From sequence record NZ_CP092562.1: a stretch of 24,653 nt of DNA. One strand, given 5' to 3'. Below, piece by piece: positions 1-23,084 of the stretch. The number at the start of each line of letters is the position of its first letter. Within the stretch, counting starts at the first letter, position 1. Made by a program: the position numbers and the translations under genes. The notes under the pieces are model-generated. The model made no database searches, was not told the DNA's origin, and saw only the letters and a program-made list of their open reading frames with translations. The stretch comes from a plasmid.

Positions 1-984
1 ATGCAAAATCAATATTTTACAGTGCAAGAAAATTACAAAGAAAGATTTTATCAAATCCCTAAAGTATTCTTTACCAGTGAAAATTATAAAAATCTAACTA
101 ATGATATGAAAATAGCCTATGCTATCTTACGTGATCGCTTAAATTTATCTATTAAAAATAGCTGGGTTGATGAAGATGGTAACATTTACTTTGTTTATTC
201 AAATGAAAAGCTAATGGAAATCTTAAATTGTAAAAAAGAAAAGTTAACAAAAATAAAAAAAGGGTTAGAAAACGATGGTCTACTCATTCAAAAACGACGT
301 GGTTTAAATAAACCAAATATTCTATATTTAATGAAACCTATTGTCACAGAACGTGATATTTACAAAATAGAAAAAGAAGAAAACGATGTTGAACCTTACG
401 GCGAGAAGGAAGTTCGAAAATCGAACGTCCAGAAGTTCGAAAATCGAACGTCCAGAAGTTCGAAAATCGAACGTCCAGAAGTTCGAAAATCGAACACTAA
501 TGATACTGACTTTAATGACATTGACTTTAATGATACTGAGAATAATGATATGAATGACTTGAATGATATAAAGTACAAAAATGAAATTAGTAATCATTCA
601 AATCATTCAAATCAATTTACACATAATTTTGATGATAAAGAAATGCTATTGCAAGAATTCCCAGAACAACTAACTAATTATTTATTAAAATATGATTATA
701 GAGATTTAGAAATCATAAAGGCTGTTATTCTTAAAGCAAAAAAATCATTTAATTCAAGGCATGAAGATATGCATTACATGTTAGAGGACATTGAGGATGA
801 AATATTAACTTCTTTAAAAAGACTTAAAAAAGCTATACATGATAGGGGAGTTAAAGGCCAAAAGGAAACAATCAAGTCAATGCAAGCTTATTTAATGCAA
901 ACAATTCTAACTGAACTTGAAGAAACACATGCCCTTTATATGCGCCGTAAAAACATGAAACAATATAATATCTTTAATCAATAA
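1..984 (+). CDS. rep: RepA_N-family plasmid replication initiator (theta replicon of the pSK1/pI258 type)
   Basis: 327-aa ORF. The N-terminus MQNQYFTVQENYKERFYQIPKVFF...YAILRDRLNLS matches my memory of staphylococcal RepA_N initiators. It has an Asp/Asn-rich linker and a conserved C-terminal domain. 23-bp tandem repeats lie inside the coding region, as in this family. Confidence 0.8.
   Translation: MQNQYFTVQENYKERFYQIPKVFFTSENYKNLTNDMKIAYAILRDRLNLSIKNSWVDEDGNIYFVYSNEKLMEILNCKKEKLTKIKKGLENDGLLIQKRRGLNKPNILYLMKPIVTERDIYKIEKEENDVEPYGEKEVRKSNVQKFENRTSRSSKIERPEVRKSNTNDTDFNDIDFNDTENNDMNDLNDIKYKNEISNHSNHSNQFTHNFDDKEMLLQEFPEQLTNYLLKYDYRDLEIIKAVILKAKKSFNSRHEDMHYMLEDIEDEILTSLKRLKKAIHDRGVKGQKETIKSMQAYLMQTILTELEETHALYMRRKNMKQYNIFNQ
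409..496. repeat. About 3.7 tandem copies of a 23-bp unit GAAGTTCGAAAATCGAACGTCCA inside rep (iteron-like, candidate internal origin)
   Basis: Read directly: copies start near 409, 432, 455 and 478 (partial). The period is not a multiple of 3, so the protein reads EVRKSNVQ/KFENRTSR/SSKIERP in the three frames. RepA_N plasmids carry their origin inside rep. Confidence 0.7.
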
Positions 985-1099
985 TTCAAATGATTTTATA
1001 ACACTCGAAGAGACATCAAAATATTCCGTTAAATCATCTGACTTTTTAACTGATGACGACGAAAAAAATCAAGAAATTGTAAGTGATTTAGAAAAAGGT

Positions 1100-1285
1100 T
1101 TGTATCGAAAACGTATGTTAAGTTATGGTGGATTGCTTAAACAAAAGCATAAAATTTTAAACTTAGACGATGCCGAAGATGGTAATTTGATTAATACAAG
1201 TGATGAAGATAAAACGACAGACGAAGAAAAAAAGCACATTCAATTACCGCAATTTGGAATTTCGAAAAGCAAAATTATTATTTAA
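1100..1285 (+). CDS. Hypothetical small acidic protein downstream of rep (TTG start in the ORF track; true start uncertain)
   Basis: The open frame extends upstream to about 1020 with no ATG. The product is D/E/K-rich. A rho-independent terminator follows it directly. Confidence 0.3.
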   Translation: MYRKRMLSYGGLLKQKHKILNLDDAEDGNLINTSDEDKTTDEEKKHIQLPQFGISKSKIII

Positions 1286-1316
1286 GACATTAGTGATAAC
1301 TGATGTCTTTTTTTAT
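1285..1316 (+). terminator. Rho-independent terminator (agacattagt-GATA-actgatgtct + T7)
   Basis: A 10-bp stem with one mismatch, a 4-nt loop, then TTTTTTTATT. Confidence 0.6.
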
Positions 1317-1336
1317 TGTTTTTCTGTAAAAAAGTG

Positions 1337-1395
1337 CTGTCTTATTTTTGTGACAAATGCTGTATGTAGTGTCACAAAAGTGTGACACTACAGCT
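1337..1395. promoter_or_regulatory. Cluster of TGTGACA / TGTCACA / GTGTGACAC dyads (candidate recombinase or regulator binding site)
   Basis: TGTGACA-N14-TGTCACA followed by the palindrome GTGTGACAC. The half-sites resemble serine-recombinase or operator sites. No coding potential. Confidence 0.3.
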
Positions 1396-1527
1396 TTGTA
1401 TGATATCACTTTAAAATAACTTAAAACCCTTGGAATGTCTGGCCTTGCCAGATCTATCATTTTTGAATGATAGCAAATTTCCCTTATGCTCTTACGGAGA
1501 TTTTAGAGTTAAATTAAAATTTCTAAG

Positions 1528-1790
1528 TTTTTGATAAGAAAAGCCCTGCAGGAATTTAGAAAAACATGGGGAAGTTTTAAAGTATTTTATGCTAATTTTT
1601 AAATTTGCATGTAAATGGGCAGTATCTAAAAAATTAGTCACTGATTTTTCTGAAATTTTTGTTTGTGAAATTAGCATATATTTATTTGGCTCATATTTGC
1701 GTTTTAAGAGACTGTATAGATTTTTAAGTACAAAACCTATATGATTTGCCTCTAAGTCTTCAAAATGCCTCTTAAAATCCAAAATAAAAG
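1528..1790. repeat. Repeat B copy A, about 260 bp, roughly 85% identical to 3274-3530
   Basis: Direct alignment by eye. The shared blocks are CCTGCAGGAATTTAGAAAAAC(A/G)TGGGGAAGTTTTAAAG, TTTGCATGTAAATGGGCAGT and GGCTCATATTTGCGTTTTAA. The copy starts at TTTTTGATAA, immediately 3' of a dso-nick-like junction. Confidence 0.6.
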
Positions 1791-1839
1791 TGTTTAATAT
1801 TGTAATAAGGATTGCTATTTTTATAAAAGGAGAGATATC

Positions 1840-1989
1840 ATGAAGATTAAAACTTTCGCTACTTTTACTCATCGTCAATTAGATAAACAAGTTAATAGGT
1901 TTTTAAAGAATGATATTCATGTATTAGAAATTCAAACACACAGTAATTGGTTATATATTTCAGCTATTGTTTTTTATGAGGATAAATAA
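1840..1989 (+). CDS. Small protein, Cse60-family-like (49 aa)
   Basis: ATG preceded by AAAGGAGAG. The pattern FATFTHRQLDKQVNRFLKNDIHVLEIQ...WLYISAIVFYE resembles the Cse60/YteV small-protein family. It is below the ORF-track length cutoff. Confidence 0.45.
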   Translation: MKIKTFATFTHRQLDKQVNRFLKNDIHVLEIQTHSNWLYISAIVFYEDK

Positions 1990-2000
1990 GGAACATCGTA

Positions 2001-2156
2001 TTTATGCCGAAAAAATTTATTGATGTTGAGAAGAACCCTTAACTAAACTTGCAGACGAATGTCGGCATAGCGTGAGCTATTAAGCCGACCATTCGACAAG
2101 TTTTGGGATTGTTAAGGGTTCCGAGGCTCAACGTCAATAAAACAATTGGAATAAAA
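2001..2156 (+). other. ssoA/palA-type single-strand origin-like structured element, copy A
   Basis: About 157 bp, about 97% identical to 4047-4203. It forms a long imperfect hairpin: GTTGAGAAGAACCCTTAAC pairs with GTTAAGGGTTCCGAGGCTCAAC, AAACTTG with CAAGTTT, CGAATGTCGGC with GCCGACCATTCG. The inner hairpin ATAGC-GUGA-GCUAU presents the CS-6 motif TAGCGT. The 5' part TTTATGCCGAAAAAATTTATTG resembles RSB. Confidence 0.55.
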
Positions 2157-2849
2157 TCAACCTACAGAGCATCCAGCTGCAAATGCAGTTCCGCAAACTG
2201 CTTCACATACACCGCCGGCTATTGGATTTACGATTGCCCATACTCCACAGTAGTGAGCACATGCATAAAGTCCAGCCATACTACAAGCGAATGCTTTGCC
2301 GTTCCATTTGAATCCTGCATATGTTACCGGTCTGTTTTTATCAACTTTTTCAGCCTTATATTCAACGTAATTTTTGTTAATAAGTATTTTTCCCTCTTTG
2401 TTTTCAGTCATACTTCTTTTTTCGGCAATGAATTTTGTGATTTTTTTGTTGTAGTTATCATATATTGTTTCAGAAACTACAATTTCTTTTGTTTTTTCAT
2501 TTTTATAAGCGTTATTAGCTATGTAGCCATATGCATTTTTATCATTTGCTTCTGTAGCTAGATATTTTAATTTAGAATTTTTGTCTTCTAGCTTTATTTT
2601 TTTAAATCCTTCTTTTTTCATTTGCTTTTCGAATTTTTGCATATCTTCATTTTTATTTTGCAATTGTTCTAGAAAACTTATTTCTTTCTTGGTCATTTGT
2701 GATACTTCGATGTTTTTGCTTTTCAATTTTTCTTTTTGATTTTCTAGTAAAGAACTTTTTTGTTCTTCATTTGCGTAAGCATTAGAAAAATTCGCGCTAA
2801 ATACCAGTAGGAACAAGGAAATTATTGAAAATAATTTTATAATTTTCAT
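2157..2849 (-). CDS. Secreted Lys/Glu-rich protein with a Cys/Gly/Ala-rich hydrophobic C-terminal domain (candidate toxin or bacteriocin-like protein)
   Basis: 230 aa. A Sec signal peptide ends at SNAYA/NE. A long K/E-rich, predicted coiled-coil region follows. The last roughly 55 aa, FKWNGKAFACSMAGLYACAHYCGVWAIVNPIAGGVCEAVCGTAFAAGCSVG, carry 7 Cys and small-residue spacing. A GGAGG RBS precedes the start. Confidence 0.6.
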   Translation of the reverse strand: MKIIKLFSIISLFLLVFSANFSNAYANEEQKSSLLENQKEKLKSKNIEVSQMTKKEISFLEQLQNKNEDMQKFEKQMKKEGFKKIKLEDKNSKLKYLATEANDKNAYGYIANNAYKNEKTKEIVVSETIYDNYNKKITKFIAEKRSMTENKEGKILINKNYVEYKAEKVDKNRPVTYAGFKWNGKAFACSMAGLYACAHYCGVWAIVNPIAGGVCEAVCGTAFAAGCSVG

Positions 2850-2958
2850 TTGATACCTCCAAGATAATAAGATATTTTAATTGTATAAGTAAGCGCTTTA
2901 TAAAATCAATATTTATTTTAATATATTTATAAACATATTTTTGAAAGGAGTCTATTTT

Positions 2959-3153
2959 ATGAATGAAAATTTAGAAAAATATATAAAAAGTTTGCCACTT
3001 TTAGGTTTGTTAATTAGTATTTTGTTAATTGTTTTATTCTTTTTTATTTTAGATGTTGATGAAGATTTATTCGTGGTTTTTTTATACTGTTTATTGCCTT
3101 TGATAGTTAATTTGTCTATTTATGGTTTTTATGTTTTTGTTAAAAGAAAGTAA
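2959..3153 (+). CDS. Small two-helix membrane protein (64 aa), divergent from the 230-aa gene; candidate immunity protein
   Basis: ATG at 2959 follows AAAGGAG. Two hydrophobic segments, LPLLGLLISILLIVLFFFIL and VVFLYCLLPLIVNLSIYGFYVF. Confidence 0.5.
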   Translation: MNENLEKYIKSLPLLGLLISILLIVLFFFILDVDEDLFVVFLYCLLPLIVNLSIYGFYVFVKRK

Positions 3154-3238
3154 GATTATGAATAATTTTGTTTTTAATTTGTATGCTTTGAGGGGGTTGG
3201 AAAACGGTAGGTGTATAGATTAGATTTCTTGTTTTTTT

Positions 3239-3273
3239 GAAACGAGTGTGAACGAGTTTCTTCTTGTCTTGAT
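3239..3273 (+). other. pC194-family dso nick-site-like motif, copy 1 (GAAACGAG[TGTGAACGAG]TTTCTTCTTGTCTTGAT)
   Basis: TTCTTCTTGTCTTGAT matches the pC194/pUB110 nick region TTCTTTCTTATCTTG^ATA. Homology with the copy at 5251-5275 stops right after CTTGAT, which is the predicted nick position. Confidence 0.45.
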
Positions 3274-3530
3274 TTTTGATAAAAACGCCCTACAGGAATT
3301 TAGAAAAACGTGGGGAAGTTTTAAAGAATTTTATGCTAATTTTTAATTTGCATGTAAATGGGCAGTGTCTAAAAATAGTTATTGTTTTTGCTCAAATTTT
3401 TGTTTTTGAAAATAGCATATATTTATTTGGCTCATATTTGCGTTTTAAAAGCATATATAAGTTTTAGATATAAAACTATATGAATCACCCCTAAATCTTT
3501 AAAATGCCCTCTTAAAATTCAAAATAAGGG
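3274..3530. repeat. Repeat B copy B (about 85% identical to 1528-1790)
   Basis: See copy A. It begins immediately 3' of the nick-like motif. Confidence 0.6.
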
Positions 3531-3540
3531 CATAAAAAAT

Positions 3541-3580
3541 AAAAGCTACCCCAGATAAAGTGAGGTAGCTTTTTCTTTCA
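3541..3580. terminator. Bidirectional rho-independent terminator (AGCTACC...GGTAGCT with T-runs on both sides)
   Basis: A 7-bp stem with a 14-nt loop, followed by TTTTTCTTT on the + strand and by a T-run on the - strand. Confidence 0.5.
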
Positions 3581-3918
3581 TACGGTCTATTTATTTTTCT
3601 TTCGACGCCGTATCGTCGATGTAATTCAAAAAAGTTATGGGCTATAAATCTACATCACTTTTTCAAGAATGTAGTAGCAATATTCAACGCAAATTAATTT
3701 TTATAACTGCTCGGAATATCTCAAGCCGTTTCTTTAATTTTGAAATAAAAAAATCGACGAAGGTCGATTACGTTTTTGCACATGTCGATTTATCCGACGT
3801 ATAAGTGCGCCCTTACGGGATTTAACTAGATTATAACGACGAATTTTAGACCTGTAAAGCAATAACAATTAGGTCTACCAGGTAGATAAAGTGTACAAAG
3901 TAGAACCGAAAAAGTTAT

Positions 3919-3996
3919 TTATTTTGAAGATTTTTCGTAGATATAATTTGCTAATAAACTTCCTAAAACTGAATAAAGAAAAATAGTTAAACTCAT
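3919..3996 (-). CDS. 25-aa hydrophobic peptide MSLTIFLYSVLGSLLANYIYEKSSK (candidate type I toxin-like or leader peptide)
   Basis: Minus-strand ATG 8 nt after GGAGTGA. A single TM-like segment with a charged tail. A palindrome GTGTCTCCATGTCTACGCATAGACAC lies just upstream (4019-4046). Confidence 0.35.
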   Translation of the reverse strand: MSLTIFLYSVLGSLLANYIYEKSSK

Positions 3997-4046
3997 GTAA
4001 TCACTCCATAATTCTGAAGTGTCTCCATGTCTACGCATAGACACGC

Positions 4047-4203
4047 ATTTATGCCGAAAAAATTTATTGATGTTGAGAAGAACCCTTAACTAAACTTGCA
4101 GACGAATGTCGGCATAGCGTGAGCTATTAAGCCGACCATTCGACAAGTTTTGGGATTGTTAAGGGTTCCGAGGCTCAACGTCAATAAAGCAATTGGAATA
4201 AAG
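4047..4203 (+). other. ssoA/palA-type single-strand origin-like structured element, copy B
   Basis: Near-identical to 2001-2156, differing at about 3 positions near the 3' end. It carries the same CS-6 TAGCGT loop and the same RSB-like 5' part. Confidence 0.55.
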
Positions 4204-4238
4204 CACCTATGATTATTTAAAAATATAAGTTATAATAC

Positions 4239-4258
4239 ATTCAAAAATATTTTTGAAT
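4239..4258. promoter_or_regulatory. cadDX operator: perfect 20-bp palindrome ATTCAAAAATATTTTTGAAT just downstream of a TATAAT -10
   Basis: The perfect dyad sits between the -10 hexamer (4231-4236) and the cadD RBS. ArsR/SmtB regulators such as CadC and CadX bind 12-2-12 dyads of this type. Confidence 0.65.
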
Positions 4259-4268
4259 GAGGTGTATT

Positions 4269-4886
4269 ATGATTCAAACGGTTGTTGCTGCTGCTGTTCT
4301 TTATATTGCTACAGCAGTTGATTTATTAGTAATTTTATTAATATTTTTTGCTAGAGCAAAGACTAGAAAAGAATATAGAGATATTTATGTTGGTCAATAT
4401 TTAGGGTCTATTATTTTAATATTAGTTAGTTTGTTTTTAGCTTTTGTATTAAATTATGTTCCAGAAAAGTGGATATTAGGTTTATTGGGTTTAATACCAA
4501 TTTATCTTGGAATTAAAGTGGCTATTTATGATGATTGTGAAGGAGAAAAGAGAGCTAAAAAAGAATTGAATGAAAAAGGATTGTCTAAATTAGTTGGTAC
4601 GGTTGCAATTGTTACGATAGCAAGTTGTGGCGCCGATAATATTGGTTTATTTGTTCCGTATTTTGTGACATTAAGTGTTACTAATTTATTACTTACTCTG
4701 TTTGTCTTTTTAATTTTAATTTTCTTCTTGGTGTTTACTGCACAAAAATTAGCTAATATTCCAGGAATTGGAGAAATTGTTGAGAAATTTAGTCGTTGGA
4801 TTATGGCTATTATTTATATAGCTTTAGGTTTATTTATTATTATTGAAAATGACACTATTCAAACAATTTTAGGATTTATATTTTAA
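4269..4886 (+). CDS. cadD: Cadmium resistance transporter CadD
   Basis: 205 aa, MIQTVVAAAVLYIATAVDLLVILLIFFARAKTRKEY..., recognised as CadD. GAGGTG RBS. The ORF-track start at 4257 is an upstream extension. Confidence 0.9.
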   Translation: MIQTVVAAAVLYIATAVDLLVILLIFFARAKTRKEYRDIYVGQYLGSIILILVSLFLAFVLNYVPEKWILGLLGLIPIYLGIKVAIYDDCEGEKRAKKELNEKGLSKLVGTVAIVTIASCGADNIGLFVPYFVTLSVTNLLLTLFVFLILIFFLVFTAQKLANIPGIGEIVEKFSRWIMAIIYIALGLFIIIENDTIQTILGFIF

Positions 4887-4904
4887 TTTAGGGTGTGATT
4901 TTAT

Positions 4905-5252
4905 ATGAGTTATGAAAATACTTGTGATGTGATCTGTGTACATGAGGATAAAGTTAACAATGCTTTAAGTTTTTTAGAAGATGATAAATCTAAGAAATTA
5001 CTTAACATTTTAGAAAAAATTTGTGATGAGAAGAAATTGAAAATCATATTATCTTTGATTAAAGAAGATGAGTTGTGTGTTTGTGATATTTCTTTGATAT
5101 TGAAAATGAGTGTTGCTTCAACTTCACATCATTTAAGGCTTTTATATAAAAATGAGGTACTTGATTTTTATAAAGATGGAAAGATGGCATATTATTTTAT
5201 TAAAGACGATGAAATAAGAGAGTTTTTCTCTAAAAATCATGAGGGTTTTTGA
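4905..5252 (+). CDS. cadX: ArsR/SmtB-family metalloregulator CadX
   Basis: 115 aa with the ELCVCDISLIL...SHHLRLL metal-binding HTH region. Directly downstream of cadD. Confidence 0.9.
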   Translation: MSYENTCDVICVHEDKVNNALSFLEDDKSKKLLNILEKICDEKKLKIILSLIKEDELCVCDISLILKMSVASTSHHLRLLYKNEVLDFYKDGKMAYYFIKDDEIREFFSKNHEGF

Positions 5253-5275
5253 AACGAGTTTCTTCTTGTCTTGAT
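5251..5275 (+). other. pC194-family dso nick-site-like motif, copy 2 (GAAACGAGTTTCTTCTTGTCTTGATAC)
   Basis: It overlaps the cadX stop codon. It contains CTTGATA, matching the pC194 and pUB110 nick sequence CTTG^ATA. Confidence 0.45.
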
Positions 5276-5408
5276 ACTATAAAAAACAAAGTTATATAAC
5301 ATAAGACGACTTATCGGAAGTAGATATGCTTGTATATTCACAGATGGTATAATAATAGAGTCGCCTATCTCTCAGGCGTCAATTGACGAAGAGAGGAGGT
5401 GCATTACT

Positions 5409-5501
5409 TTGCTAATCATTTTCGTTCACATCATAGCACCAGTCATCAGTGGCTGTGCTGTTGCGTATTATACTTATTGGCTTAGTAAACGCAACAAATA
5501 A
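5409..5501 (+). CDS. Type I toxin, SprA1/PepA1-like membrane peptide (30 aa, MLIIFVHIIAPVISGCAVAYYTYWLSKRNK)
   Basis: Near-identical to PepA1 (MLIFVHIIAPVISGCAIAFFSYWLSRRNTK) as I recall it. TTG start 9 nt after GGAGGTG. The 5' UTR can pair CTCTC with GAGAG to occlude the SD. Confidence 0.7.
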   Translation: MLIIFVHIIAPVISGCAVAYYTYWLSKRNK

Positions 5502-5530
5502 TTAATAGGCGACTTTATAAGCCAGCATCG

Positions 5531-5594
5531 AAAAAATCCCCACACTACTGCAATAGTGTGGGGATTGGTGCATTAATTGTTAATCATTTTCGTT
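5531..5594 (-). ncRNA. SprA1AS-like antisense RNA (about 64 nt), convergent with toxin 1
   Basis: Minus-strand promoter TTGCAT-18-TGTTATAAT (5601-5630). The predicted 5' end carries AACGAAAATGATTAAC, complementary to the toxin start region TTGCTAATCATTTTCGTT (5408-5426). It ends at the hairpin CCCCACACTA/TAGTGTGGGG followed by UUUUUU on the minus strand. Confidence 0.5.
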
Positions 5595-5672
5595 ATATAA
5601 ATTATAACACTGGTTAGTAGAGAAATGCAAAATGATTGAATTAATAGTAAATGTATTAATGAATACTCACAC

Positions 5673-6644
5673 TTATACTTTTAAAATAGTTCTTCCTAAA
5701 TGTTGTCCTTTTAAAAGCTGATCTATCGTTTTATAGAATTCTTCAAATCCAATTTCATTGTATAGAAGTGAATTTCCTATATTCCATTCATTTGCTAACT
5801 TACTCCATATATCTTCACGGATATTATGATCAACATATACAGAATCAATGCCAATTAATTTAATACCTCTAAGAATAAACGGTAATATATTAGCGTTAAG
5901 TGAATTTCCTGCTACATTTCCACATACAGTAGCAACACCTTGATAATTTAGACGTTTTAAACCGTATAATGTTACATTACTCCCCACTGTATCTAAGAAA
6001 TAATCAAAAATACCTTTTTTAAGCGGTTTATTATCATCTTCAATTATTATTACTTGTTTTGCACCTAATTTTTTTGCGATTTCTATTTGCTTTTCTTTTC
6101 TTACGATAGCAGTGATATTTTCATATCCAATTTTATGTAAAATTTGTATAGCAACACTGCCCACACCACCTGTAGCCCCAGACACTAAAATTTCAGGTTG
6201 TGATTTGATATTCATTCCATATTTTTCTAGTTCAAAAATTGATAATGCTGCCGTAAAACCGGCTGTGCCATATACCATAGACTCTTTAATAGACATTTCT
6301 TGGGGAATAGGAACAATCCACTCTCCAGGCACTTGTGCATATTCTGAAAATCCACCTGTATGTGTCACGCCAACATCATAACCAGTAACTAATACATTAT
6401 CGCCTTCTTTAAACTTATCATTCGAACTTGATTCAACAATACCTGCAAAATCTATACCAGGAATCATAGGATAATCTCTAATTACACCGCCTTTATATTG
6501 TAAAGCTAGCATATCCTTATAATTTATTGAAGAGTATACCACTTTTACTAATACATCACCCTTCGATAAATGAGATTCATCAACTTTTTCTACTTTATAA
6601 CTAACATTTGATGCACTTTTTCTCACTACTACCGCATTGAACAT
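5673..6644 (-). CDS. YhdH/YhfP-family NADPH:quinone oxidoreductase (MDR superfamily, acrylyl-CoA reductase-like)
   Basis: 323 aa with GATGGVG in the Rossmann motif and a GroES-like N-domain. Confidence 0.75.
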   Translation of the reverse strand: MFNAVVVRKSASNVSYKVEKVDESHLSKGDVLVKVVYSSINYKDMLALQYKGGVIRDYPMIPGIDFAGIVESSSNDKFKEGDNVLVTGYDVGVTHTGGFSEYAQVPGEWIVPIPQEMSIKESMVYGTAGFTAALSIFELEKYGMNIKSQPEILVSGATGGVGSVAIQILHKIGYENITAIVRKEKQIEIAKKLGAKQVIIIEDDNKPLKKGIFDYFLDTVGSNVTLYGLKRLNYQGVATVCGNVAGNSLNANILPFILRGIKLIGIDSVYVDHNIREDIWSKLANEWNIGNSLLYNEIGFEEFYKTIDQLLKGQHLGRTILKV

Positions 6645-6767
6645 TTATTAGCCTTCTTTCACAATTGTTTTGTAGAAGTATGTTTTTGTTGCAAAACTAT
6701 TTTCCTACAAAACTTATCATGATATGATAAGCGAGTCAATACTAATGATTTAAGAGAGGTTTTAGTT

Positions 6768-7187
6768 GTGGAATTAGATAATTGTATAAATTATTTGTTG
6801 AGTACTTCTCAGAATAGAGTTTTTAAACATTTTAAAAGTTTATTAAGTCCCTATAATATTACTCCAGCAGAATATGGTGTTTTGAATTGCTTGATTAATA
6901 GTAATTTGAATACACCTAAAGCGATTGGTAATACTTTAAATTTAGAACCTTCAACAATATCTGGAATATTAGATAAGATGTCCAAAAAGGATCTAATAAC
7001 ACGTCAAACTGATAATGAAAATAGAAGAACTGTGCTAATAAACAGTACAAATAAAGCAAAAGACTTATGGCCAACATTAGAAAAGAAAGCCTATCAACTT
7101 AATAATCATTACTTCGCTAATTTAACTAATGAAGAAACTGTAGTGTTTAAAAAGATATTACTAAAGATAAATAAAACTACGTTTTAA
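6768..7187 (+). CDS. MarR-family transcriptional regulator
   Basis: 139 aa with a winged-HTH pattern (LTPAEYGVLNCL...ISGILDKMSKKDLITRQTDNENRR). Divergent from the oxidoreductase gene. GTG start. Confidence 0.7.
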   Translation: MELDNCINYLLSTSQNRVFKHFKSLLSPYNITPAEYGVLNCLINSNLNTPKAIGNTLNLEPSTISGILDKMSKKDLITRQTDNENRRTVLINSTNKAKDLWPTLEKKAYQLNNHYFANLTNEETVVFKKILLKINKTTF

Positions 7188-7455
7188 TTTTTACGTTATA
7201 AAAAAGTTGAAGTGCGAATTATAATCGAGTAAATATAAATGATAGCTTAGCTTAATTATATATTAAAGCCAACTATACTTTTATTCCCGAAAAACCTACT
7301 ATCCAAATTTCTAAGATACTTTAGCCTCTATAATAAACATATTGTAATATAATTTATGTATTATTTAGGTTTACCCTAATCGAACAATAAAAAATACTTG
7401 TAAAATGCTATTGTCACTTTGCTTGATATATGAGAATTATTTAACCTTATAAATG

Positions 7456-7498
7456 AGAAAAAAGCAACGCACTTTAAATAAGATACGTTGCTTTTTCG
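7456..7498. terminator. Bidirectional terminator downstream of blaZ (AAGCAACG...CGTTGCTT flanked by A- and T-runs)
   Basis: An 8-bp stem. AAAAAA precedes it and TTTTT follows it on the + strand. Confidence 0.55.
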
Positions 7499-7712
7499 AT
7501 TGATGAACACCTATAATTAAACTATTCATCTATTATTTATGATTTTTTGTATATACAATATTTCTAGTTTGTTAAAGAGAATTAAGAAAATAAATCTCGA
7601 AAATAATAAAGGGAAAATCAGTTTTTGATATCAAAATTATACATGTCAACGATAATACAAAATATAATACAAACTATAAGATGTTATCAGTATTTATTAT
7701 GCATTTAGAATA

Positions 7713-8633
<921 letters not shown>

Positions 8634-8661
8634 TTATTATAAATATTTGAAAGAAGGTGTC

Positions 8662-10422
8662 AAAATGGCTAAATTACTAATAATGAGCGTAGTAAGCTTT
8701 TGTTTTATATTTCTATTGTTAGTATTTTTTAGGTACATATTAAAACGCTATTTTAATTATAGTTTAAATTATAAAGTTTGGTATCTAACTATGCTTGCTG
8801 GATTAATTCCTTTTATCCCAATTAAATTCTCTTTTATAAAATTTAATAATGTGAATAATCAAGCGCCCACAGTTGAAAGTAAGTCACACGATTTGAACCA
8901 TAACATAAATACCACCAAACCTATTCAAGAGTTCACAACAGATATCCATAAGTTTAATTGGGATTCAATTGATAATATCTGCACAGTTATTTGGATAGTT
9001 TTAGTTATTATTTTAAGTTTTAAATTTTTGAAAGCCTTATTATATCTTAAATATTTAAAGAAACAGTCACTTTATCTAAACGAAAATGAAAAAAATAAAA
9101 TAGATACGATACTTTTCAACCATCAATATAAAAAAAATATTGTGATTCGAAAAGCAGAGGCTATTCAATCTCCAATAACTTTTTGGTATGGGAAATATAT
9201 TATTTTGATTCCTAGTTCATATTTTAAAAGTGTAATTGATAAAAGACTAAAATATATAATACTGCATGAATATGCTCATGCTAAAAATAGAGATACTTTA
9301 CATTTAATTATCTTTAATATCTTCTCTATTATTATGAGTTACAATCCATTAGTACATATTGTAAAAAGAAAGATAATTCATGACAATGAAGTAGAAGCCG
9401 ATAGATTTGTCCTTAATAATATTAACAAAAATGAATTTAAAACTTATGCGGAATCTATTATGGACTCCGTATTAAAAACCCCATTTTCCAACAAAAATAT
9501 ATTAAGCCATTCATTTAATGGTAAAAAATCATTACTCAAAAGTAGATTAATTAATATAAAAGAAGCCGATCTGAAAAAGCAGTCAAAATTAATTCTAATT
9601 TTTATTTGTATTTTTACTTTTTTTATCATGATAATTCAAAGCCAGTTTTTAATGGGGCAATCCTTAACTGATTATAATTATAAAAAGCCCTTACAAAGCG
9701 ATTACCAAATTTTAGATGAAAGTAAAAATTTTGGTTCAAATAGTGGATCTTTCGTTATGTACAGCATGAAGAAAGACAAATACTATATTTATAATGAAAA
9801 AGAAAGTAGAAAAAGATATTCTCCTGATTCAACTTACAAAATTTATTTAGCACTGTTTGGACTTGACCGTCATATTATAAGTGATAAAAATTCACGTATG
9901 TCATGGAATCATAAACATTATCTTTTCGAGTCTTGGAATAAGGAACAAGATTTAAATACAGCAATGCAAAATTCAGTTAATTGGTACTTCGAACGTATTA
10001 GTAATCAAATACCAAAGAACTATACTGCGGCTCAACTCAAGCAATTAAATTATGGTAATGAAAATTTGGGAAGTTATAAAAGCTATTGGATGGAAGATAG
10101 TTTGAAAATATCTAATCTTGAACAAGTAATAGTTTTTAAAAATATGATGGAACAAAATAACCATTTTAGTAAAAAAGCAAAGAATCAATTATCTTCTTCA
10201 TTATTGATTAAGAAAAATGAAAAGTATGAACTGTATGGGAAAACAGGTACAGGTATAGTAAACGGGAAGTATAATAATGGGTGGTTTGTAGGTTACGTAA
10301 TTACAAATCATGATAAGTATTATTTTGCTACACATTTATCAGATGGAAACCCGTCTGGGAAAAATGCTGAATTAATAAGTGAAAAAATATTAAAAGGAAT
10401 GGGTGTTTTAAATGACCAATAA
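8662..10422 (+). CDS. blaR1: Beta-lactam sensor/signal transducer BlaR1
   Basis: Starts [14 protein letters not shown] after an AAGGTG RBS. It has the zinc metalloprotease motif [10 protein letters not shown] and a C-terminal penicillin-binding sensor domain with STYK and KTGTG motifs. Confidence 0.95.
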
Positions 10423-15495: not shown

Positions 15496-15891
15496 ATGGA
15501 TAAGAAAACAATTTATTTTATATGTACAGGAAACTCTTGTCGTAGCCAAATGGCTGAAGGTTGGGGAAAGGAAATATTGGGTGAAGGTTGGAATGTCTAT
15601 TCTGCTGGTATTGAAACACATGGTGTTAATCCTAAAGCAATAGAAGCTATGAAAGAAGTAGATATTGATATATCAAACCATACGTCAGACTTGATTGATA
15701 ATGATATTTTAAAACAATCAGATTTGGTCGTAACGTTATGTAGTGATGCAGACAATAATTGTCCTATTTTACCACCAAACGTTAAAAAAGAGCATTGGGG
15801 TTTTGATGATCCAGCAGGTAAAGAATGGTCAGAATTCCAACGTGTTAGAGACGAGATTAAATTAGCTATAGAAAAGTTTAAATTGAGATAA
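15496..15891 (+). CDS. arsC: Arsenate reductase ArsC (thioredoxin-coupled, LMW-PTPase family)
   Basis: 131 aa, with the CTGNSCRS P-loop and the downstream Cys pair. Confidence 0.9.
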
Positions 15892-15896
15892 TCATA

Positions 15897-15930
15897 AACA
15901 CCTCTTATTTAGTTAATAAGAGGTGTTTTG
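15897..15930 (+). terminator. Rho-independent terminator after arsC (AAACACCTCTTAT...ATAAGAGGTGTTTT)
   Basis: A 13-bp stem ending in a T-run. Confidence 0.7.
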
Positions 15931-16270
15931 CCATTTAAAGAACAAAATTTGTGCCATATACAATATGCCCTCTCTTTTTCTCATTAACGAACGTTTATAA
16001 CGCAATCATGATGAGAGTATTAATACAGTTAATTATTTGAAATACTTTAGTTTACATAATGTTGAATTATAGGTAGTGAAATTGTATTTATTATACATTG
16101 TCATATCGTTGTTTAATGATAGTTAATTTAAGGATAATAGAATTAATATTATATATAGATGAACAAAACAAGCAACAGAGCAAAAAAACACTTTTAGATT
16201 ATTTTTACTCATTCTCTATTTTATTTATTTTTGCTATAATAAATAAAGAATATTAAATGGAGTTGTTTTT

Positions 16271-16564
16271 ATGAAAAAGAAATTTGTTTCTAGTTGTATT
16301 GCTAGTACAATCTTATTCGGCACTTTATTAGGTGTAACTTATAAAGCTGAAGCTGCAACAGTACATGTAGCTGGTGGTGTTTGGAGCCATGGTATTGGAA
16401 AACATTACGTATGGTCTTATTATAGTCACAATAAAAGAAATCATGGTTCAACAGCAGTAGAGAAATATTCATCTTTTAGTGGTGTTGCTCGACCTGGTGT
16501 TCAATCTAAGGCATCTGCTCCAAAGGCTTGGGGTGGAAACAAAACATTTTATAGTCTTCACTAA
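16271..16564 (+). CDS. Lactococcin 972-family bacteriocin precursor
   Basis: 97 aa. Signal peptide MKKKFVSSCIASTILFGTLLGVTYKAEA. The mature part, GVWSHGIGKHY...SHNKRNHGSTAV...KTFYSLH, parallels Lcn972 (GTWQHGYG...HHGSKTHSATV...ASFYYNFW). An extended -10 TGCTATAAT sits at 16232-16240. Confidence 0.7.
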   Translation: MKKKFVSSCIASTILFGTLLGVTYKAEAATVHVAGGVWSHGIGKHYVWSYYSHNKRNHGSTAVEKYSSFSGVARPGVQSKASAPKAWGGNKTFYSLH

Positions 16565-16582
16565 TTACATATATTAATTAAG

Positions 16583-16624
16583 GAGAATAGACAGAATTAA
16601 GTAAACTTAATTCTGTCTATTCTC
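16583..16624 (+). promoter_or_regulatory. 19-bp perfect hairpin between the bacteriocin gene and the downstream genes (attenuator or processing site)
   Basis: GAGAATAGACAGAATTAAG-TAAA-CTTAATTCTGTCTATTCTC with no U-run after it. This is typical of partial terminators that set the structural-gene to immunity-gene ratio. Confidence 0.55.
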
Positions 16625-16638
16625 TTGAAAGAGGCAAT

Positions 16639-18573
16639 ATGAAAAAATTCAAATTATTTTTAGATTTTAGTACTTTATTATTAATTTCAGGGCTATTATT
16701 TTTATTTTTCTTCAAAGAAAATGAAGAAATTATACCTGAAAGTTCCAATATTTTAACAATCTCTAATTGGGATAAATCTAACAGTAAATCAAAAGTGTTA
16801 GATGTCATTGAATCAGGCGCCAAAAATCAAAATATACAAATAATTAAATCCGTTAAAGATTTTGATAATAAAAAAGAATTTTTTGTTTTCAACTCAAAAC
16901 GAAATAATTCTGACTTTATACGTAATAAAACATCACTTTTAACTCCATCAGATTTATTAAACAGAGAGATAAAAGGAAAGTATTATATTATTGGTGAACA
17001 TTTCAATGTAGAAGAGCTTACGAGTGAATTAAAAAAAGCTGGTTTAACATCTGAAGTTGAATACATAAATAGAAACATATTATTTTTTGAATTAGTCATA
17101 GATAATGATTTATTAGTGCCTTTCATATTCTTAGGCGTATTATATCTTTTGTACTTCTTATATGACAGAGGATATAATTTGAAATTTTATGCTATTCAAA
17201 AGCTACATGGCTTTTCAACTACACGCATTATTTTTCATAATATTCATATAAAAATCATTTATTGGCTAGTACTTACCACTATTTTCTTTATTGCTAATAT
17301 ATTAATCATTCATATAGCCAATTTAGAATTGGATTTCTTAATGTTTATTCGTAGATTTATCGTGTTGCTTTTTGTTTTTGCTTGTATTACTACATTGTTG
17401 TGGCTGATTTCGTATAGTCTTCTTTTGAAGTTAAGTATTCCATTAACCTTAAAAGGGAAAAAAGGATATAAGTTTTCAATATTTATGGGTACCTTCACCA
17501 AATGTATCATGGTGCTAATACTATCTTTTTTACTGGCACAAAATTTAAATGCTTATACGAAGTTAAAGAATATATATGACTCTGAAAAAATCTGGCAAAA
17601 GTTAGATAATTACTATACATTAGAGATTTCTCCTAATATTAGAAATTCAGAAGAAAAACAAATTTTAGAAACTAATATATACAATTTAATTAAGAAAAGC
17701 GAACAACTTGGTGGATTGCTTTTAAAGAATAATAATATAGCCAATCCCGATAAAAACAATTACATTCCTGAAAATGGCAATGTCTTTTTTATCAATAACA
17801 ATTTTCTGAATTTCTATAAAAATATAAATCATGATTTTAAAATGATTGACAATCATTCGGATAAAATAAACGTGTTTATTCCTCCAAGGTTACAATATCA
17901 AAAATCTGAAATTCAAAAAAATCACCAAGGATGGATTGACTTTCAAAAGCAACAAAACAAAAAAGTAGATGTGCAAGTACTGTCAAAAAACGTATCTGTT
18001 TTTTCTTTTGATCGCACAACTAATTTGAAATTTGGATATCTAGATTCTCCAATAGTAATGTTGTTGACACCTGACGATTTAACAGGAGATTTTTATTTAG
18101 CTGCTGTTTCTCAAGGTGGATATCTATTTAAAGATTTAGATACACTTAAACAGTTGCTTAAAGATAATCACCTAGAAGAAGAAATTAGCGGTATAACTAA
18201 TTACAAGGATTCTGTGTTAAATGAATTAAATGAAACGAAAACAAAAATGATAATAACAATAGTTACTATTATTATTAACGTTTTCATTCTTTTGATAGCT
18301 ACTGTATTTGAAACAATTCAATATTTTAGCTGGAATAAAAAGCAACTATTATTAAGAAAAATTCATGGTTATTCATTATTCAGCAGTAATGTACGTTATT
18401 TAACAATTTCTATTTTACTTTCTATTATGTTAGCTTACACTACGCATATTTTATTTGGTTCAAAGATATTACTATTCATAATAATGTCTATTGCTATTAT
18501 TCAACATTTACTTCAAATTGCTTATATTAAATATCTTGAAAAATACTTTAAAGATTTAATGAGGGAGATTTAA
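16639..18573 (+). CDS. Bacteriocin-associated integral membrane protein (DUF1430 / FtsX-like permease partner of Lcn972-type loci)
   Basis: 644 aa. One N-terminal TM, a large extracytoplasmic region, a TM cluster, then further C-terminal TMs. Together with the downstream ABC ATPase this matches the Lcn972 locus architecture. Confidence 0.65.
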   Translation: MKKFKLFLDFSTLLLISGLLFLFFFKENEEIIPESSNILTISNWDKSNSKSKVLDVIESGAKNQNIQIIKSVKDFDNKKEFFVFNSKRNNSDFIRNKTSLLTPSDLLNREIKGKYYIIGEHFNVEELTSELKKAGLTSEVEYINRNILFFELVIDNDLLVPFIFLGVLYLLYFLYDRGYNLKFYAIQKLHGFSTTRIIFHNIHIKIIYWLVLTTIFFIANILIIHIANLELDFLMFIRRFIVLLFVFACITTLLWLISYSLLLKLSIPLTLKGKKGYKFSIFMGTFTKCIMVLILSFLLAQNLNAYTKLKNIYDSEKIWQKLDNYYTLEISPNIRNSEEKQILETNIYNLIKKSEQLGGLLLKNNNIANPDKNNYIPENGNVFFINNNFLNFYKNINHDFKMIDNHSDKINVFIPPRLQYQKSEIQKNHQGWIDFQKQQNKKVDVQVLSKNVSVFSFDRTTNLKFGYLDSPIVMLLTPDDLTGDFYLAAVSQGGYLFKDLDTLKQLLKDNHLEEEISGITNYKDSVLNELNETKTKMIITIVTIIINVFILLIATVFETIQYFSWNKKQLLLRKIHGYSLFSSNVRYLTISILLSIMLAYTTHILFGSKILLFIIMSIAIIQHLLQIAYIKYLEKYFKDLMREI

Positions 18574-18576
18574 ACA

Positions 18577-18888
18577 ATGAAAAGAACTTTAATTATTGTA
18601 ACAATTGTACTATTAATCATCATACTTAGTCTGTTATTGGTTAGAAATGAGCATTTAGATCGTTTTAACCCACTGTTAAAAGAAAAAGTATCTTATGCCA
18701 AAGTTCCAAAAGATACCCAGGACTATAGAAATATAACTGTATACTCTAAAAATGGAGAAAAAAAGAGTTATAAATTGGATTTTTTAGGTTATGATCCTAC
18801 AAAAGAATATGTGAAAGTAAATCATAAAGGGAAATATGTGCGTTCGATAGAATACATTACAAAAGATATTCCTAGCTTTTTAAAATGA
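18577..18888 (+). CDS. YxeA/DUF1093-like small exported protein
   Basis: 103 aa with an N-terminal TM or signal anchor. The pattern KVSYAKV...YRNITVYSKNGEKKSYKLDF...KYV resembles the YxeA family found in bacteriocin-transport clusters. Confidence 0.45.
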   Translation: MKRTLIIVTIVLLIIILSLLLVRNEHLDRFNPLLKEKVSYAKVPKDTQDYRNITVYSKNGEKKSYKLDFLGYDPTKEYVKVNHKGKYVRSIEYITKDIPSFLK

Positions 18889-18899
18889 GGTGACCGATA

Positions 18900-19526
18900 G
18901 TGATAAAACTTGAAAATGTTTTTGTAAAAAAAGGTAATAAAAACATTTTAGACGGATGTAACTTTAATTTTGAAAAAGGAAAATCATATGCTTTAGTTGG
19001 AGAAAGTGGCGCTGGAAAATCTACTTTACTTAACATAATCGCTGGGTTCGAAGATGTATCACAAGGAAGCATATATATTGAAGATAAGTTACTAAAAAAG
19101 AAAGTCGATTTTTATAGATATACGTTAGGGTATTTGTTTCAAAATTTTGCTTTACTTGAAAATCAAACAATCAGTCAAAATTTAGATTTAGCCCTAAAGT
19201 TCAAAAAGAATAAAAAAGATAATATGAACTTAAAGAAAGAAGTATTAAAAAAGGTCGGCCTAGATTTAGATATCAAGAGAATTGTTAGTTCTCTAAGCGG
19301 TGGTGAACAACAAAGAGTAGCATTGGCAAGATTAATATTAAAAGATCCGAAAATCATTTTAGCTGATGAACCTACTGGATCACTAGATACGAAAAATGGA
19401 AAAATAGTTATTGATTTATTATTGAAGCTACTTGATGAAAATAAAACTATGATTGTCGTAACGCATGATTTAGAGCTTGCGAAACGATTTGATGTCATAG
19501 TCAATATTTCTGAGCTTAGAAGTTAA
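18900..19526 (+). CDS. ABC transporter ATP-binding protein (bacteriocin export/immunity)
   Basis: GTG start after GAGGTG. Walker A GESGAGKST, signature LSGGEQQR, Walker B ILADEPT, H-loop. Confidence 0.85.
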   Translation: MIKLENVFVKKGNKNILDGCNFNFEKGKSYALVGESGAGKSTLLNIIAGFEDVSQGSIYIEDKLLKKKVDFYRYTLGYLFQNFALLENQTISQNLDLALKFKKNKKDNMNLKKEVLKKVGLDLDIKRIVSSLSGGEQQRVALARLILKDPKIILADEPTGSLDTKNGKIVIDLLLKLLDENKTMIVVTHDLELAKRFDVIVNISELRS

Positions 19527-19606
19527 GAAATATTGATAGGTATAGCCATACATAGAGAAAAAACAATATGAAATATGATTAGTCATTACTTTTGAGTTTT
19601 TTAATT

Positions 19607-19634
19607 TAAGGACTGGATTTTCCAGTCCTTTTTT
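19607..19634 (+). terminator. Rho-independent terminator (GGACTGG-ATTTT-CCAGTCC + T6)
   Basis: A 7-bp GC-rich stem followed by TTTTTT. Confidence 0.7.
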
Positions 19635-19763
19635 GTGATGACAAAAAACAAGCCTCGCAGAGCACACGTTTTTAATGACTTATTTGGTTTTTAATAAGTC
19701 TAGTATGTTAAAACTTTTCTGTGTTTAGGTGTTATAATCATATGCAGTGGAAGTTGATTTATT

Positions 19764-20974
19764 ATGTCTTATTCAATTATTCGAGTTGTTAAAGTGAAAT
19801 CAAAAACAAATACAAGAGGTATTCAAAGAGAAAATAAAAATTATGAAAATATAGATATTGATTTAAGTAAGTCATATTTAAACTATGATTTAGTCAATGA
19901 TACTAAGTTTGATTTTAATAAAAAAATTGATGAGAAAATCGAACAAAATTATAAAGGGAAACGCAAAATTAGAACAGATGCCATTAAACATATTGATGGA
20001 TTAATTACATCAGATAATGTGTTTTTAATCAATTATCTGAAGAAGAGACAAAATAGTTTTTTAAGCATGCTAAAGCGTTCTTGGAAGAAGAATACGGTAA
20101 AGAAAATCTTTTATATGCGACAGTACATATGGATGAGATAACACCACATATGCATTATGGCGTAATTCCTATTACTAAAGATGGACGTTTAAGTGCGAAA
20201 GAAGTTGTAGGTAATAAAAAAGCATTAACCGAATTCCAAGATAGATTCAATACGTATATTAATAAGCAAGGCTATGATTTAAAACGAGGAATTTCTAGAC
20301 AACTTACAAAAGAAAAACATGATCAAGTTAGCGGCTATAAACAAAAAACAGAATATCATAAACAAATGTATATGCGCGAGAAGCAAATAGAGGATCATTT
20401 AAAGTAAGAAAATGATAAATTGATACAAAACTACCAAAAATCATTAGATACGCTTAAAAAGCTTCTGAGTGTCATGTATGAAATTAAAACTAAAAATGTA
20501 GGTGGATGGTTTCATAAAGAGAAGCAAGAAACAGGCAATATTGTAATTACTAAAACTTATTTTGAAAAATACACTAAACAAATTAAAGCAGCACAGATGA
20601 TATTAGATGATTATGAATGGATTAAAAGTGGGAAGTCATTAAAAAAATCAGAGAAACAAAATGAAAGTTTAGTTAATGAATTGACTAGTGTCCATATGGA
20701 AAATGAAAAGCTGGTTGAAGAATTTAATGATTTAGCACAACGTTATAATTATTTGTTGTCAGAGAATGAAAAGAAAGATAAAGAACTAAATTATACGCTT
20801 AAGTTATTCAATCAAGTTTTTAAAATCATTAAAAGTATGATGAAAGAAGAGCGTTATCATACGCTAATAAATCATATTGATAATCATTTAGACAATTCTA
20901 AAATACGTGAAGTAATGACGATAGATAACAATGATGAACAGTTCTTTAAGAAGAAATATCAAGCACAAGAATGA
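19764..20974 (+). pseudogene. mob: Pre/Mob-family (Mob_Pre) relaxase gene, disrupted by a frameshift and an in-frame stop
   Basis: The N-terminus [13 protein letters not shown] and the motif [15 protein letters not shown] are Mob_Pre hallmarks. The reading frame shifts at the T6 run 20057-20062; restoring one T gives ...[34 protein letters not shown] at 20405-20407 interrupts the same frame, which then continues into a coiled-coil C-terminus ending at 20974. Confidence 0.75.
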
Positions 20975-22839: not shown

Positions 22840-22935
22840 TTATTTTTTATCACGTTTATGGAGCCAATAACCAAATAACGTAACGAGACAACCACTGATT
22901 GCCGTTGTCATGATGTGAACAAGAATTTCATTCAT
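22840..22935 (-). CDS. Type I toxin, SprA1/PepA1-like membrane peptide (31 aa, MNEILVHIMTTAISGCLVTLFGYWLHKRDKK)
   Basis: Paralogue of the 5409-5501 peptide. ATG 7 nt after GGAGGTG. The 5' UTR carries the same CTCTC...GAGAG SD-occluding arrangement (22950-22990). Confidence 0.65.
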   Translation of the reverse strand: MNEILVHIMTTAISGCLVTLFGYWLHKRDKK

Positions 22936-23084
22936 AAATCGCACCTCCTCTCTACGCCGAATTGACGTCTGAGAGATAGACGACCTTCACATTATAACAA
23001 ATCTCTTCTTCCATGAAATAACATGAATATTAATAAATGTTGTTATATATTAAAGATAAATAAATATAAGGGTGGGATTGATAA

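Follow-up and report, generated by a model that had tools for sequence, protein, structure and literature searches.

A gene cluster predicted to encode a lactococcin 972-family bacteriocin and its immunity on a Staphylococcus aureus penicillinase/cadmium/arsenic plasmid

The plasmid DNA analysed here (NZ_CP092562.1; 24,653 nucleotides (nt), hereafter the window, to whose positions all coordinates refer) carries at 16225–19634 four consecutive open reading frames (ORFs) of 97, 644, 103 and 208 amino acids (aa), all on the + strand. Judged by sequence, they form an intact cluster of bacteriocin and immunity genes that belongs to the lactococcin 972 (Lcn972) family and lies on a S. aureus penicillinase/cadmium/arsenic plasmid. 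The explanation that we favour, and consider probable, is that this operon encodes a class IId, unmodified bacteriocin together with a dedicated self-protection system. All four proteins scored above the curated cut-offs of profile hidden Markov models, the family test proposed in an initial annotation of this DNA, and the four ORFs, a 19-bp perfect hairpin and the operon terminator all lie at the positions given there. The locus is already known, as public annotation names its genes and published papers refer to it; our additions are modest and comprise the confinement of its YxeA-containing form to the sampled Staphylococcaceae, an intercistronic hairpin found family-wide, and the assignment, at moderate confidence, of its permease to the type VII ATP-binding cassette (ABC) fold.

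Results

Anatomy of the operon

The features of the locus are as follows, with the evidence for each in brackets.

15957–16231, + strand: conserved upstream region, presumably a regulatory, promoter-bearing leader
16232–16240, + strand: putative extended −10 element TGcTATAAT (read directly from the sequence)
16271–16564, + strand: precursor of a lactococcin 972-family bacteriocin, 97 aa (TIGR01653, PF09683, Lcn972 alignment, PDB 2LGN)
16581–16626, + strand: intercistronic stem-loop, loop UAAA (folding, shuffles, positional conservation)
16639–18573, + strand: bacteriocin-associated integral membrane protein, 644 aa (TIGR01654, DUF1430)
18577–18888, + strand: YxeA-family protein, 103 aa (TIGR01655, PDB 3NPP)
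18900–19526, + strand: ABC ATPase of the type found in Lcn972 loci, 208 aa, start codon GTG (TIGR03608, motifs)
19608–19636, + strand: intrinsic operon terminator, 10-bp stem with 5 G-C pairs, then TTTTTTGTG (terminator scan, sequence)

The 3′ limit of the interval, 19634, corresponds to the canonical terminator called by the terminator scan (19608–19630 plus its T-run), and the 5′ limit, 16225, lies just upstream of the extended −10 box. The −35 element is weak (ttctct at 16212–16217), which explains why a consensus promoter scan made no call there. An AT-rich inverted repeat (16220–16229 and 16238–16247; TTTATTTATT and AATAAATAAA) flanks the −10 box on both sides and could be either an operator or a chance occurrence in AT-rich DNA. 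Similarity to other copies of the module begins at about 15957, some 310 bp before the bacteriocin ATG, and is near-identical between two plasmid contexts, the arsC-flanked one of the window and the one flanked by the sin recombinase gene in pMW2-like plasmids; the module thus occurs in at least two contexts.

The bacteriocin precursor

The 97-aa ORF matched TIGR01653 over residues 1–96 of 97 (E = 9.7e-31, 105.9 bits against a cut-off of 32.1) as well as PF09683 (Lactococcin_972; E = 4.9e-13, 49.9 bits, cut-off 22). Residues 1–28 constitute a predicted Sec signal peptide, which starts with MKKK, continues with a hydrophobic core and ends in YKAEA↓ATVH. The cleavage site was read from the sequence and from the alignment with Lcn972, in which AEA↓A of the window precursor is aligned with AQA↓E. 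The predicted mature peptide has 69 aa, 7490 Da and an isoelectric point (pI) of 10.1, and lacks Cys. Neither a double-glycine leader in the precursor nor an exporter with a peptidase domain (C39) at the locus was found by sequence inspection and Pfam profile search, and the AXA cleavage site points to export by Sec. At the sequence level, the only PDB match was the structure of Lcn972 itself (2LGN, E = 0.009, residues 36–94), to which the bacteriocin is 28% identical. Of the sequence blocks that the initial annotation described as shared with Lcn972, G-W-HG-G and the C-terminal FY are indeed common to both, whereas the middle block is only loosely similar (NHGSTAV versus THSATVV).

The transporter and its accessory protein

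The 644-aa ORF matched TIGR01654 (E = 2.2e-70, 238 bits, cut-off 189.35) and also DUF1430. Its hydropathy profile suggests an N-terminal helix and a soluble domain, then some four helices forming a bundle (147–303), a second, large soluble domain (~304–537) and a C-terminal bundle corresponding to the DUF1430 region, with ~7–8 helices predicted. A structural model of moderate confidence displays two membrane bundles and two extracytoplasmic alpha/beta domains, and its best structural matches are type VII ABC permeases: YbbP of Escherichia coli (score 12.1, 368 residues aligned), HrtB (9.6), BceB (8.4), FtsX (8.2) and MacB (7.3). A sequence-level PDB search with the permease gave nothing meaningful, and the FtsX Pfam profile did not match it, recognising its relatives only weakly (E = 0.005–0.011, below cut-off). 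We also looked for an internal duplication, for which hhalign gave a 19-column match at 28% probability that was not relied on. We tentatively assign the protein, with moderate confidence, to the type VII (MacB/FtsX/BceB-like) ABC permeases.

The best-scoring model of the ATPase was TIGR03608 (E = 3.7e-79, 265 bits, cut-off 254.85), and all its motifs are intact, as had been claimed: Walker A GESGAGKS at 34, Q81, LSGGE at 132, Walker B IILADEP at 152 and the H-loop TH at 188. The 103-aa protein matched TIGR01655 (YxeA; E = 4.8e-17, 62.6 bits, cut-off 29.65), with no match to the Pfam DUF1093 model; its best PDB match was 3NPP, a DUF1093 family protein (E = 0.008). A hydrophobic segment at residues 4–22 represents an N-terminal anchor or signal, followed by an extracytoplasmic domain of ~75 aa, and the protein is probably an accessory subunit of the transporter.

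Missing permease annotations in other records were considered as a sign of widespread pseudogenisation, an idea that we rejected, as one of them was a gene lying across the record origin and one a gene that was truly split. In the plasmid of strain GP11 (NZ_CP139867.1; 3760–5695 of the extracted locus), the permease is split into ORFs of 834 and 1065 bp beside an intact bacteriocin gene.

The intercistronic hairpin

Between the bacteriocin and permease genes, arms at 16583–16601 and 16606–16624 form 19 perfect Watson-Crick pairs, and two more pairs extend the stem to 16581–16626. It folds at −30.9 kcal/mol, compared with −9.2 ± 2.6 for dinucleotide shuffles (z = −8.4; none of 200 shuffles was as stable). 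The stem is followed by only 'UU' and then by the permease ribosome-binding site GAAAGAGG at 16627–16634, with the ATG at 16639. The earlier remark is therefore accurate to the letter, in that the full stem is not followed by a U-run, and a consensus scan for intrinsic terminators (G+C-rich stems with an immediate U run) made no call at 16581–16626. However, within the 3′ arm the distal 9 nt (UAUUCUCUU) are rich in U and pair with the purine-rich 5′ arm, the stem being A+U-rich overall. No Rfam family matched within 15800–19900.

For comparison, bacteriocin-permease spacers from nine loci of six genera, gathered from tblastn matches in a plasmid collection and from contig look-ups, were each folded against shuffles. 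A strong stem-loop a few bases after the bacteriocin stop codon was present in eight of them, with spacer z-scores of −7.5 for the window and likewise for Bacillus toyonensis, −5.2 for Staphylococcus hyicus, −5.0 for Enterococcus casseliflavus, −4.6 for Macrococcus, −3.3 for Streptomyces and −2.9 for the Lactococcus lactis plasmid pBL1; in Streptococcus salivarius, the value is −0.8 over the whole 186-nt spacer, inside which there is an 11-bp stem followed by UUUUUGUUU. The sole exception among the nine was the spacer of a S. aureus chromosomal paralogue, in which no hairpin was found. Since the hairpin sequences are unrelated among loci, it is structure and position that are conserved. Furthermore, a U-tract occurs on the 3′ side in Macrococcus, S. 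salivarius, E. casseliflavus and pBL1, where it often pairs with an upstream A-tract, so that by their sequence these hairpins look like intrinsic terminators. In both the window and pBL1, the hairpin directly adjoins the ribosome-binding site of the permease gene. S. hyicus has a homologue of the window hairpin that differs from it by a single compensatory pair (U-A to C-G) and a single mismatch. Among 345 S. aureus plasmids, 329 show at least 99% identity in the hairpin region; the S. aureus copies are thus near-invariant, and beyond them only the S. hyicus hairpin could be aligned.

One pMW2 copy, from the turkey strain tu2 (NZ_MH785247.1), lacks 23 nt (window 16579–16601) and with them the whole 5′ arm, with both flanking genes annotated; this copy is either a genuine variant without the hairpin or the product of faulty assembly at the palindrome.

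The attenuator suggested in the initial annotation is a reasonable reading of this element, strengthened by the conserved position, and we infer that the hairpin is best regarded as a leaky terminator, a 3′-end stabiliser or an RNase III processing element. Martínez and colleagues reportedly described in 1999 a short abundant lcn972 transcript ending between the genes, a point that does not form part of the evidence weighed here.

Relatives of the locus

Word-indexed protein searches returned close staphylococcal relatives only (8 matches for the permease and 16 for the bacteriocin). The order bacteriocin-permease-ATPase on one strand is common to the window, pBL1 and the loci of Bacillus, Streptococcus, Enterococcus and Streptomyces. 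Two forms exist: one of three genes, without YxeA, in pBL1 and in plasmids of B. toyonensis, S. salivarius, E. casseliflavus and Streptomyces, and one of four genes, with YxeA between permease and ATPase, in the window, the S. aureus chromosomal locus, the S. hyicus chromosome and a Macrococcus plasmid. Within the plasmid collection, Staphylococcus, Macrococcus and Macrococcoides were the only genera with members related to this YxeA subgroup, and the YxeA-containing form is, as far as sampled, restricted to Staphylococcaceae. Hence the statement that four genes are arranged exactly as in the lcn972 cluster is right about order and strand, but pBL1 has three genes and none for YxeA.

The S. 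aureus chromosomal paralogue was examined in CP051994.1, a 683-kb 'plasmid' resembling a chromosome, where it lies beside comK and a lipoate-protein ligase gene (5001–8242 of the extracted locus) and corresponds to SAS028/SAS029 of N315. Its bacteriocin gene appears, by sequence, to contain a frameshift that separates the beginning of the signal peptide from the mature domain. For SAS028/SAS029, both a transcript and an antisense RNA have been isolated together with RNase III (PMC3386247).

At the chromosomal rplI-dnaB site, some S. hyicus strains contain the full locus (4001–7256 of extracted locus L012) with an IS200-type (Y1_Tnp) transposase gene upstream, and others (L010 and L014; 3001–5893) contain only the permease, YxeA and ATPase genes. 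Likewise, 27.5% of pneumococci carry scbBC without scbA (PMC11796350). Such a polymorphism of producers and immune-only strains, seen in both S. hyicus and pneumococci, is expected of a bacteriocin-immunity system.

A scan of genome contigs for such loci returned one locus only, on a 13.7-kb contig labelled Nonomuraea sp. NPDC050691 (NZ_JBFAIA010000209.1, 1–8710), whose permease is 100% identical to that of the window. Its consecutive ORFs of 295 (the size of blaZ), 97, 644, 103, 208 and 286 aa (the size of rep) indicate that it is most likely S. aureus plasmid DNA contaminating an actinomycete assembly.

Prevalence and plasmid context

The 3.6-kb segment matched 364 plasmid records, all from Staphylococcus; coverage was at least 80% in 325 of these records and identity at least 99% in 283, and the bacteriocin protein is at least 95% identical in ~340 plasmids. 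This conservation is consistent with selective maintenance, of which it is no proof given clonal plasmid spread. In nearly all of the matches listed, the products are named lactococcin 972 family bacteriocin, bacteriocin-associated integral membrane family protein, YxeA family protein and ABC transporter ATP-binding protein. In the literature, the locus was given as a feature of pMW2-like plasmids by Shearer et al. 2011 (PMC3276174) and was also mentioned by Bukowski et al.; a 2024 review cites bioinformatic evidence only (PMC10941976), and our literature search for proteomic evidence of secretion retrieved nothing relevant. That staphylococcal homologues are uncharacterised, as first supposed, agrees with this review and with two further reports (PMC6491766, PMC12455999).

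The neighbourhood of resistance determinants noticed initially is real: the plasmid carries cadD and cadX, blaZ-blaR1-blaI on Tn552, and arsRBC. Directly downstream of the operon lies pre/mob, encoding a MOBV 'plasmid recombination protein' (19764–20974, + strand), which is broken into three overlapping ORFs (19764–20141, 20081–20407 and 20420–20974), so that the relaxase is probably a pseudogene on this plasmid. Two ORFs for Fst-family type I toxins, at 5409–5501 (+ strand) and 22840–22944 (− strand), are annotated as such in near-identical plasmids. Other S. aureus plasmids, NC_007931.1 and LC784002.1 among them, match the window near-perfectly up to ~15994 and diverge thereafter, which indicates that the window is a mosaic of a bla/cad/ars backbone and a pMW2-like bacteriocin-pre-rep segment, joined just past the arsC terminator (15896–15928).

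Discussion

Following the explanation that we favour, transcription would probably start just 3′ of the extended −10 box, and the Sec signal peptide would be cut after AEA28, yielding a strongly cationic, Cys-free peptide of 7.5 kDa. By homology to Lcn972, this peptide is expected to bind lipid II and so to block septal cell-wall synthesis in sensitive Gram-positive neighbours. The stem-loop, whether as leaky terminator, 3′-end stabiliser or RNase III site, would keep the bacteriocin mRNA more abundant than the read-through mRNA of the three downstream genes. Permease and ATPase would build a type VII (MacB/FtsX/BceAB-like) ABC machine, assisted by the membrane-anchored protein of the YxeA family, and ATP-driven motion of its extracytoplasmic domains may keep the bacteriocin off the producer's lipid II, conferring immunity rather than export. 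As plasmid-free segregants and competitors would lack immunity, the locus would serve competition and help to keep the bla/cad/ars plasmid.

Several reports on relatives bear on this model. The Lcn972 cluster gives immunity and stabilises unstable plasmids in L. lactis, for which the authors favour post-segregational killing (PMC4055356), and streptococcin B, another member of the family, is an active bacteriocin (PMC11796350); the cluster of Staphylococcus equorum KS1039 is probably active as well. By analogy, it is plausible that the window locus serves both competition and the retention of its plasmid. The immunity function that we favour for the ABC machine is likewise drawn from an analogy, namely with the target-protection mechanism proposed for BceAB by Kobras et al. 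2020 (discussed in PMC7438565), and the occurrence of YxeA-family proteins with BceAB-like modules agrees with it.

A number of observations weigh against this explanation. Because the peptide is just 28% identical to Lcn972, its binding of lipid II is an extrapolation from a distant homologue. In 2019, the locus on pMW2-like plasmids was described as a putative bacteriocin/immunity operon 'yet uncharacterized' (PMC6491766), a 2025 study of Lcn972-like genes in S. aureus, leaving it unstated whether the copy was plasmid-borne or chromosomal, observed no inhibition in standard assays (PMC12455999), and the function of the permease and ATPase genes is experimentally unverified in any Lcn972 locus (PMC11796350). 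The split permease of strain GP11, if real and not a sequencing error, means that a producer tolerates loss of the permease. The hairpin has no canonical U-run and was not called by the terminator scan, and the one plasmid without its 5′ arm suggests that it is dispensable, unless this too is a sequencing error. Finally, with its two Fst-type stabilisation toxin genes, the plasmid already possesses classical post-segregational killing modules.

Alternatively, the locus might in practice be an immunity or antimicrobial-peptide-resistance cassette, in which the bacteriocin would be silent, poorly expressed or inactive and the ABC transporter and YxeA would protect against Lcn972-type or other cell-wall-active peptides of competitors, for instance coagulase-negative staphylococci. 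The lack of inhibition by S. aureus carrying Lcn972-like genes (PMC12455999) and of any published activity for the pMW2/pN315-type locus (PMC6491766, PMC10941976) speak for such a cassette, as do the commonness of immunity-only loci in relatives (PMC11796350), the chromosomal paralogue with its seemingly frameshifted bacteriocin and intact downstream genes, the existence of staphylococcal Lcn972-type producers that inhibit S. aureus (PMC5810056), and a transporter fold that is that of BceAB-type resistance modules (PMC7438565). However, the bacteriocin ORF is full length and matches TIGR01653 from end to end, it has retained a signal peptide, a ribosome-binding site and a good −10 box, and its protein is conserved across the ~340 plasmids, in which clonal spread may have a part; moreover, a hairpin favouring the bacteriocin transcript over that of the immunity genes would be senseless for a dead gene. 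We regard this cassette as rather unlikely. Somewhat less credit still is due to the idea that permease and ATPase export the bacteriocin, with immunity provided by another component such as YxeA. TIGR03608 is named 'putative bacteriocin export ABC transporter', and several genome-mining papers depict the cluster accordingly (PMC11161930, PMC4289311). In contrast, transporter genes persist without the bacteriocin gene in S. hyicus and in pneumococci (PMC11796350), and pBL1 is without YxeA and yet immune (PMC4055356). The precursor, moreover, has a typical Sec signal with an AXA site aligned with the known Lcn972 site, and the double-glycine leader and C39 peptidase domain are both missing. MacB-type transporters can expel periplasmic peptides, as MacB does with enterotoxin STII, a point in favour of export; type VII ABC permeases (MacB, FtsX, BceAB) are not known to form a transmembrane substrate channel, a point against it. 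Type VII permeases act by mechanotransmission, and this, together with the Sec signal on the precursor, favours immunity over the exporter label of TIGR03608.

As for the 19-bp palindrome, it might be without any role in expression and have arisen by chance, be selfish, or act as a site for recombination or as a DNA operator for a protein. The missing canonical U-run and terminator call, the turkey-isolate pMW2 copy that lacks the 5′ arm and the hairpin-less chromosomal paralogue would all be compatible with this. Nevertheless, unrelated stem-loops occupy the exact junction in all but one of the compared loci, several of them with terminator-type U-tracts, and the stability of the hairpin far beyond that of its shuffles, its near-invariance among S. 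aureus plasmids and the compensatory pair relative to S. hyicus speak against a palindrome without function in expression, which we consider improbable.

Going beyond the self-protected bacteriocin operon that we favour, we tentatively propose, as a possibility with the odds against it, that the four-gene variant of Staphylococcaceae is functionally distinct: YxeA would be a bacteriocin-specific adaptor of the target-protection machine, the cassette would chiefly be a secreted-toxin addiction module for pMW2/pN315-type bla/cad/ars plasmids in times without antibiotic or metal selection, and the hairpin would set the ratio of toxin to immunity.

As a finding of a genome scan, the locus adds little, since its genes are correctly named publicly and noted in the literature. 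If the peptide is active, however, a very common family of S. aureus penicillinase/heavy-metal plasmids carries its own weapon for competition and retention, which could help to explain plasmid persistence without drug selection, and a lipid II-directed peptide is naturally active among staphylococci. Furthermore, the locus is a compact system for studying how type VII ABC transporters and their recurrent YxeA accessories protect from peptides that bind cell-wall precursors.

Comparison with known systems

The founding member of the family, the lcn972 operon of L. lactis pBL1 (NC_004955; lcn972-orf2-orf3), is also plasmid-borne and has the same gene order and strand. Like the window locus, it has a Sec-dependent pre-bacteriocin, a hairpin next to the ribosome-binding site, a permease of ~645 aa (TIGR01654/DUF1430) and an ATPase of ~207 aa, and its mature peptide (66 aa, pI 9.7) is, like the 69-aa one of the window, cationic and devoid of Cys. 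Identity to the window is 28% for the bacteriocin, 22% for the permease and 50% for the ATPase (Orf3). In contrast to the window, pBL1 has three genes, its hairpin ends in a clearer U-tract, and the host and probably also the target spectrum are different.

A second comparison is with BceAB-type modules such as YxdJK/YxdLM-YxeA of Bacillus subtilis and YsaDCB/TCS-G of L. lactis, in which, as appears to hold for the window, a single-polypeptide tandem FtsX-like permease, a separate ATPase and a small secreted or anchored TIGR01655 protein are encoded in one operon. These modules protect against peptides that bind precursors of the cell wall; a gene for a TIGR01655 protein accompanies both YxdLM-YxeA and YsaDCB, BceB is among the best structural matches of the window permease, and YsaDCB confers resistance to Lcn972 itself, with YsaD modulating the activity of the module (PMC7438565). 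Unlike BceB with its 10 helices, the window permease belongs to TIGR01654/DUF1430 and has fewer predicted helices, and the locus is linked to a producer gene. Two-component system genes were present neither in the locus nor among the annotations of near-identical plasmids covering ~83% of the window.

Streptococcin B of Streptococcus pneumoniae (scbABC) is an Lcn972-like bacteriocin whose gene is followed by the B and C genes; it is active in intraspecies competition, and natural BC-only variants exist (PMC11796350). It differs in being chromosomal, composed of three genes and regulated by ComE/ComR, whereas the staphylococcal plasmid locus is without an evident regulator. For S. equorum KS1039, a complete lactococcin 972 operon and inhibition of S. 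aureus RN4220 were reported (PMC5810056).

Closest to the window is the rplI-dnaB locus of S. hyicus, with 70%, 55%, 56% and 67% identity for the four proteins and a homologous hairpin. The Macrococcus plasmid pMP21332_2 shares the four-gene order, and so does the S. aureus chromosomal paralogue near comK, which is 34–53% identical and deviates by its missing hairpin and seemingly frameshifted bacteriocin gene. Unlike these chromosomal loci of Staphylococcaceae, the copy in the window resides on a mobilisable resistance plasmid.

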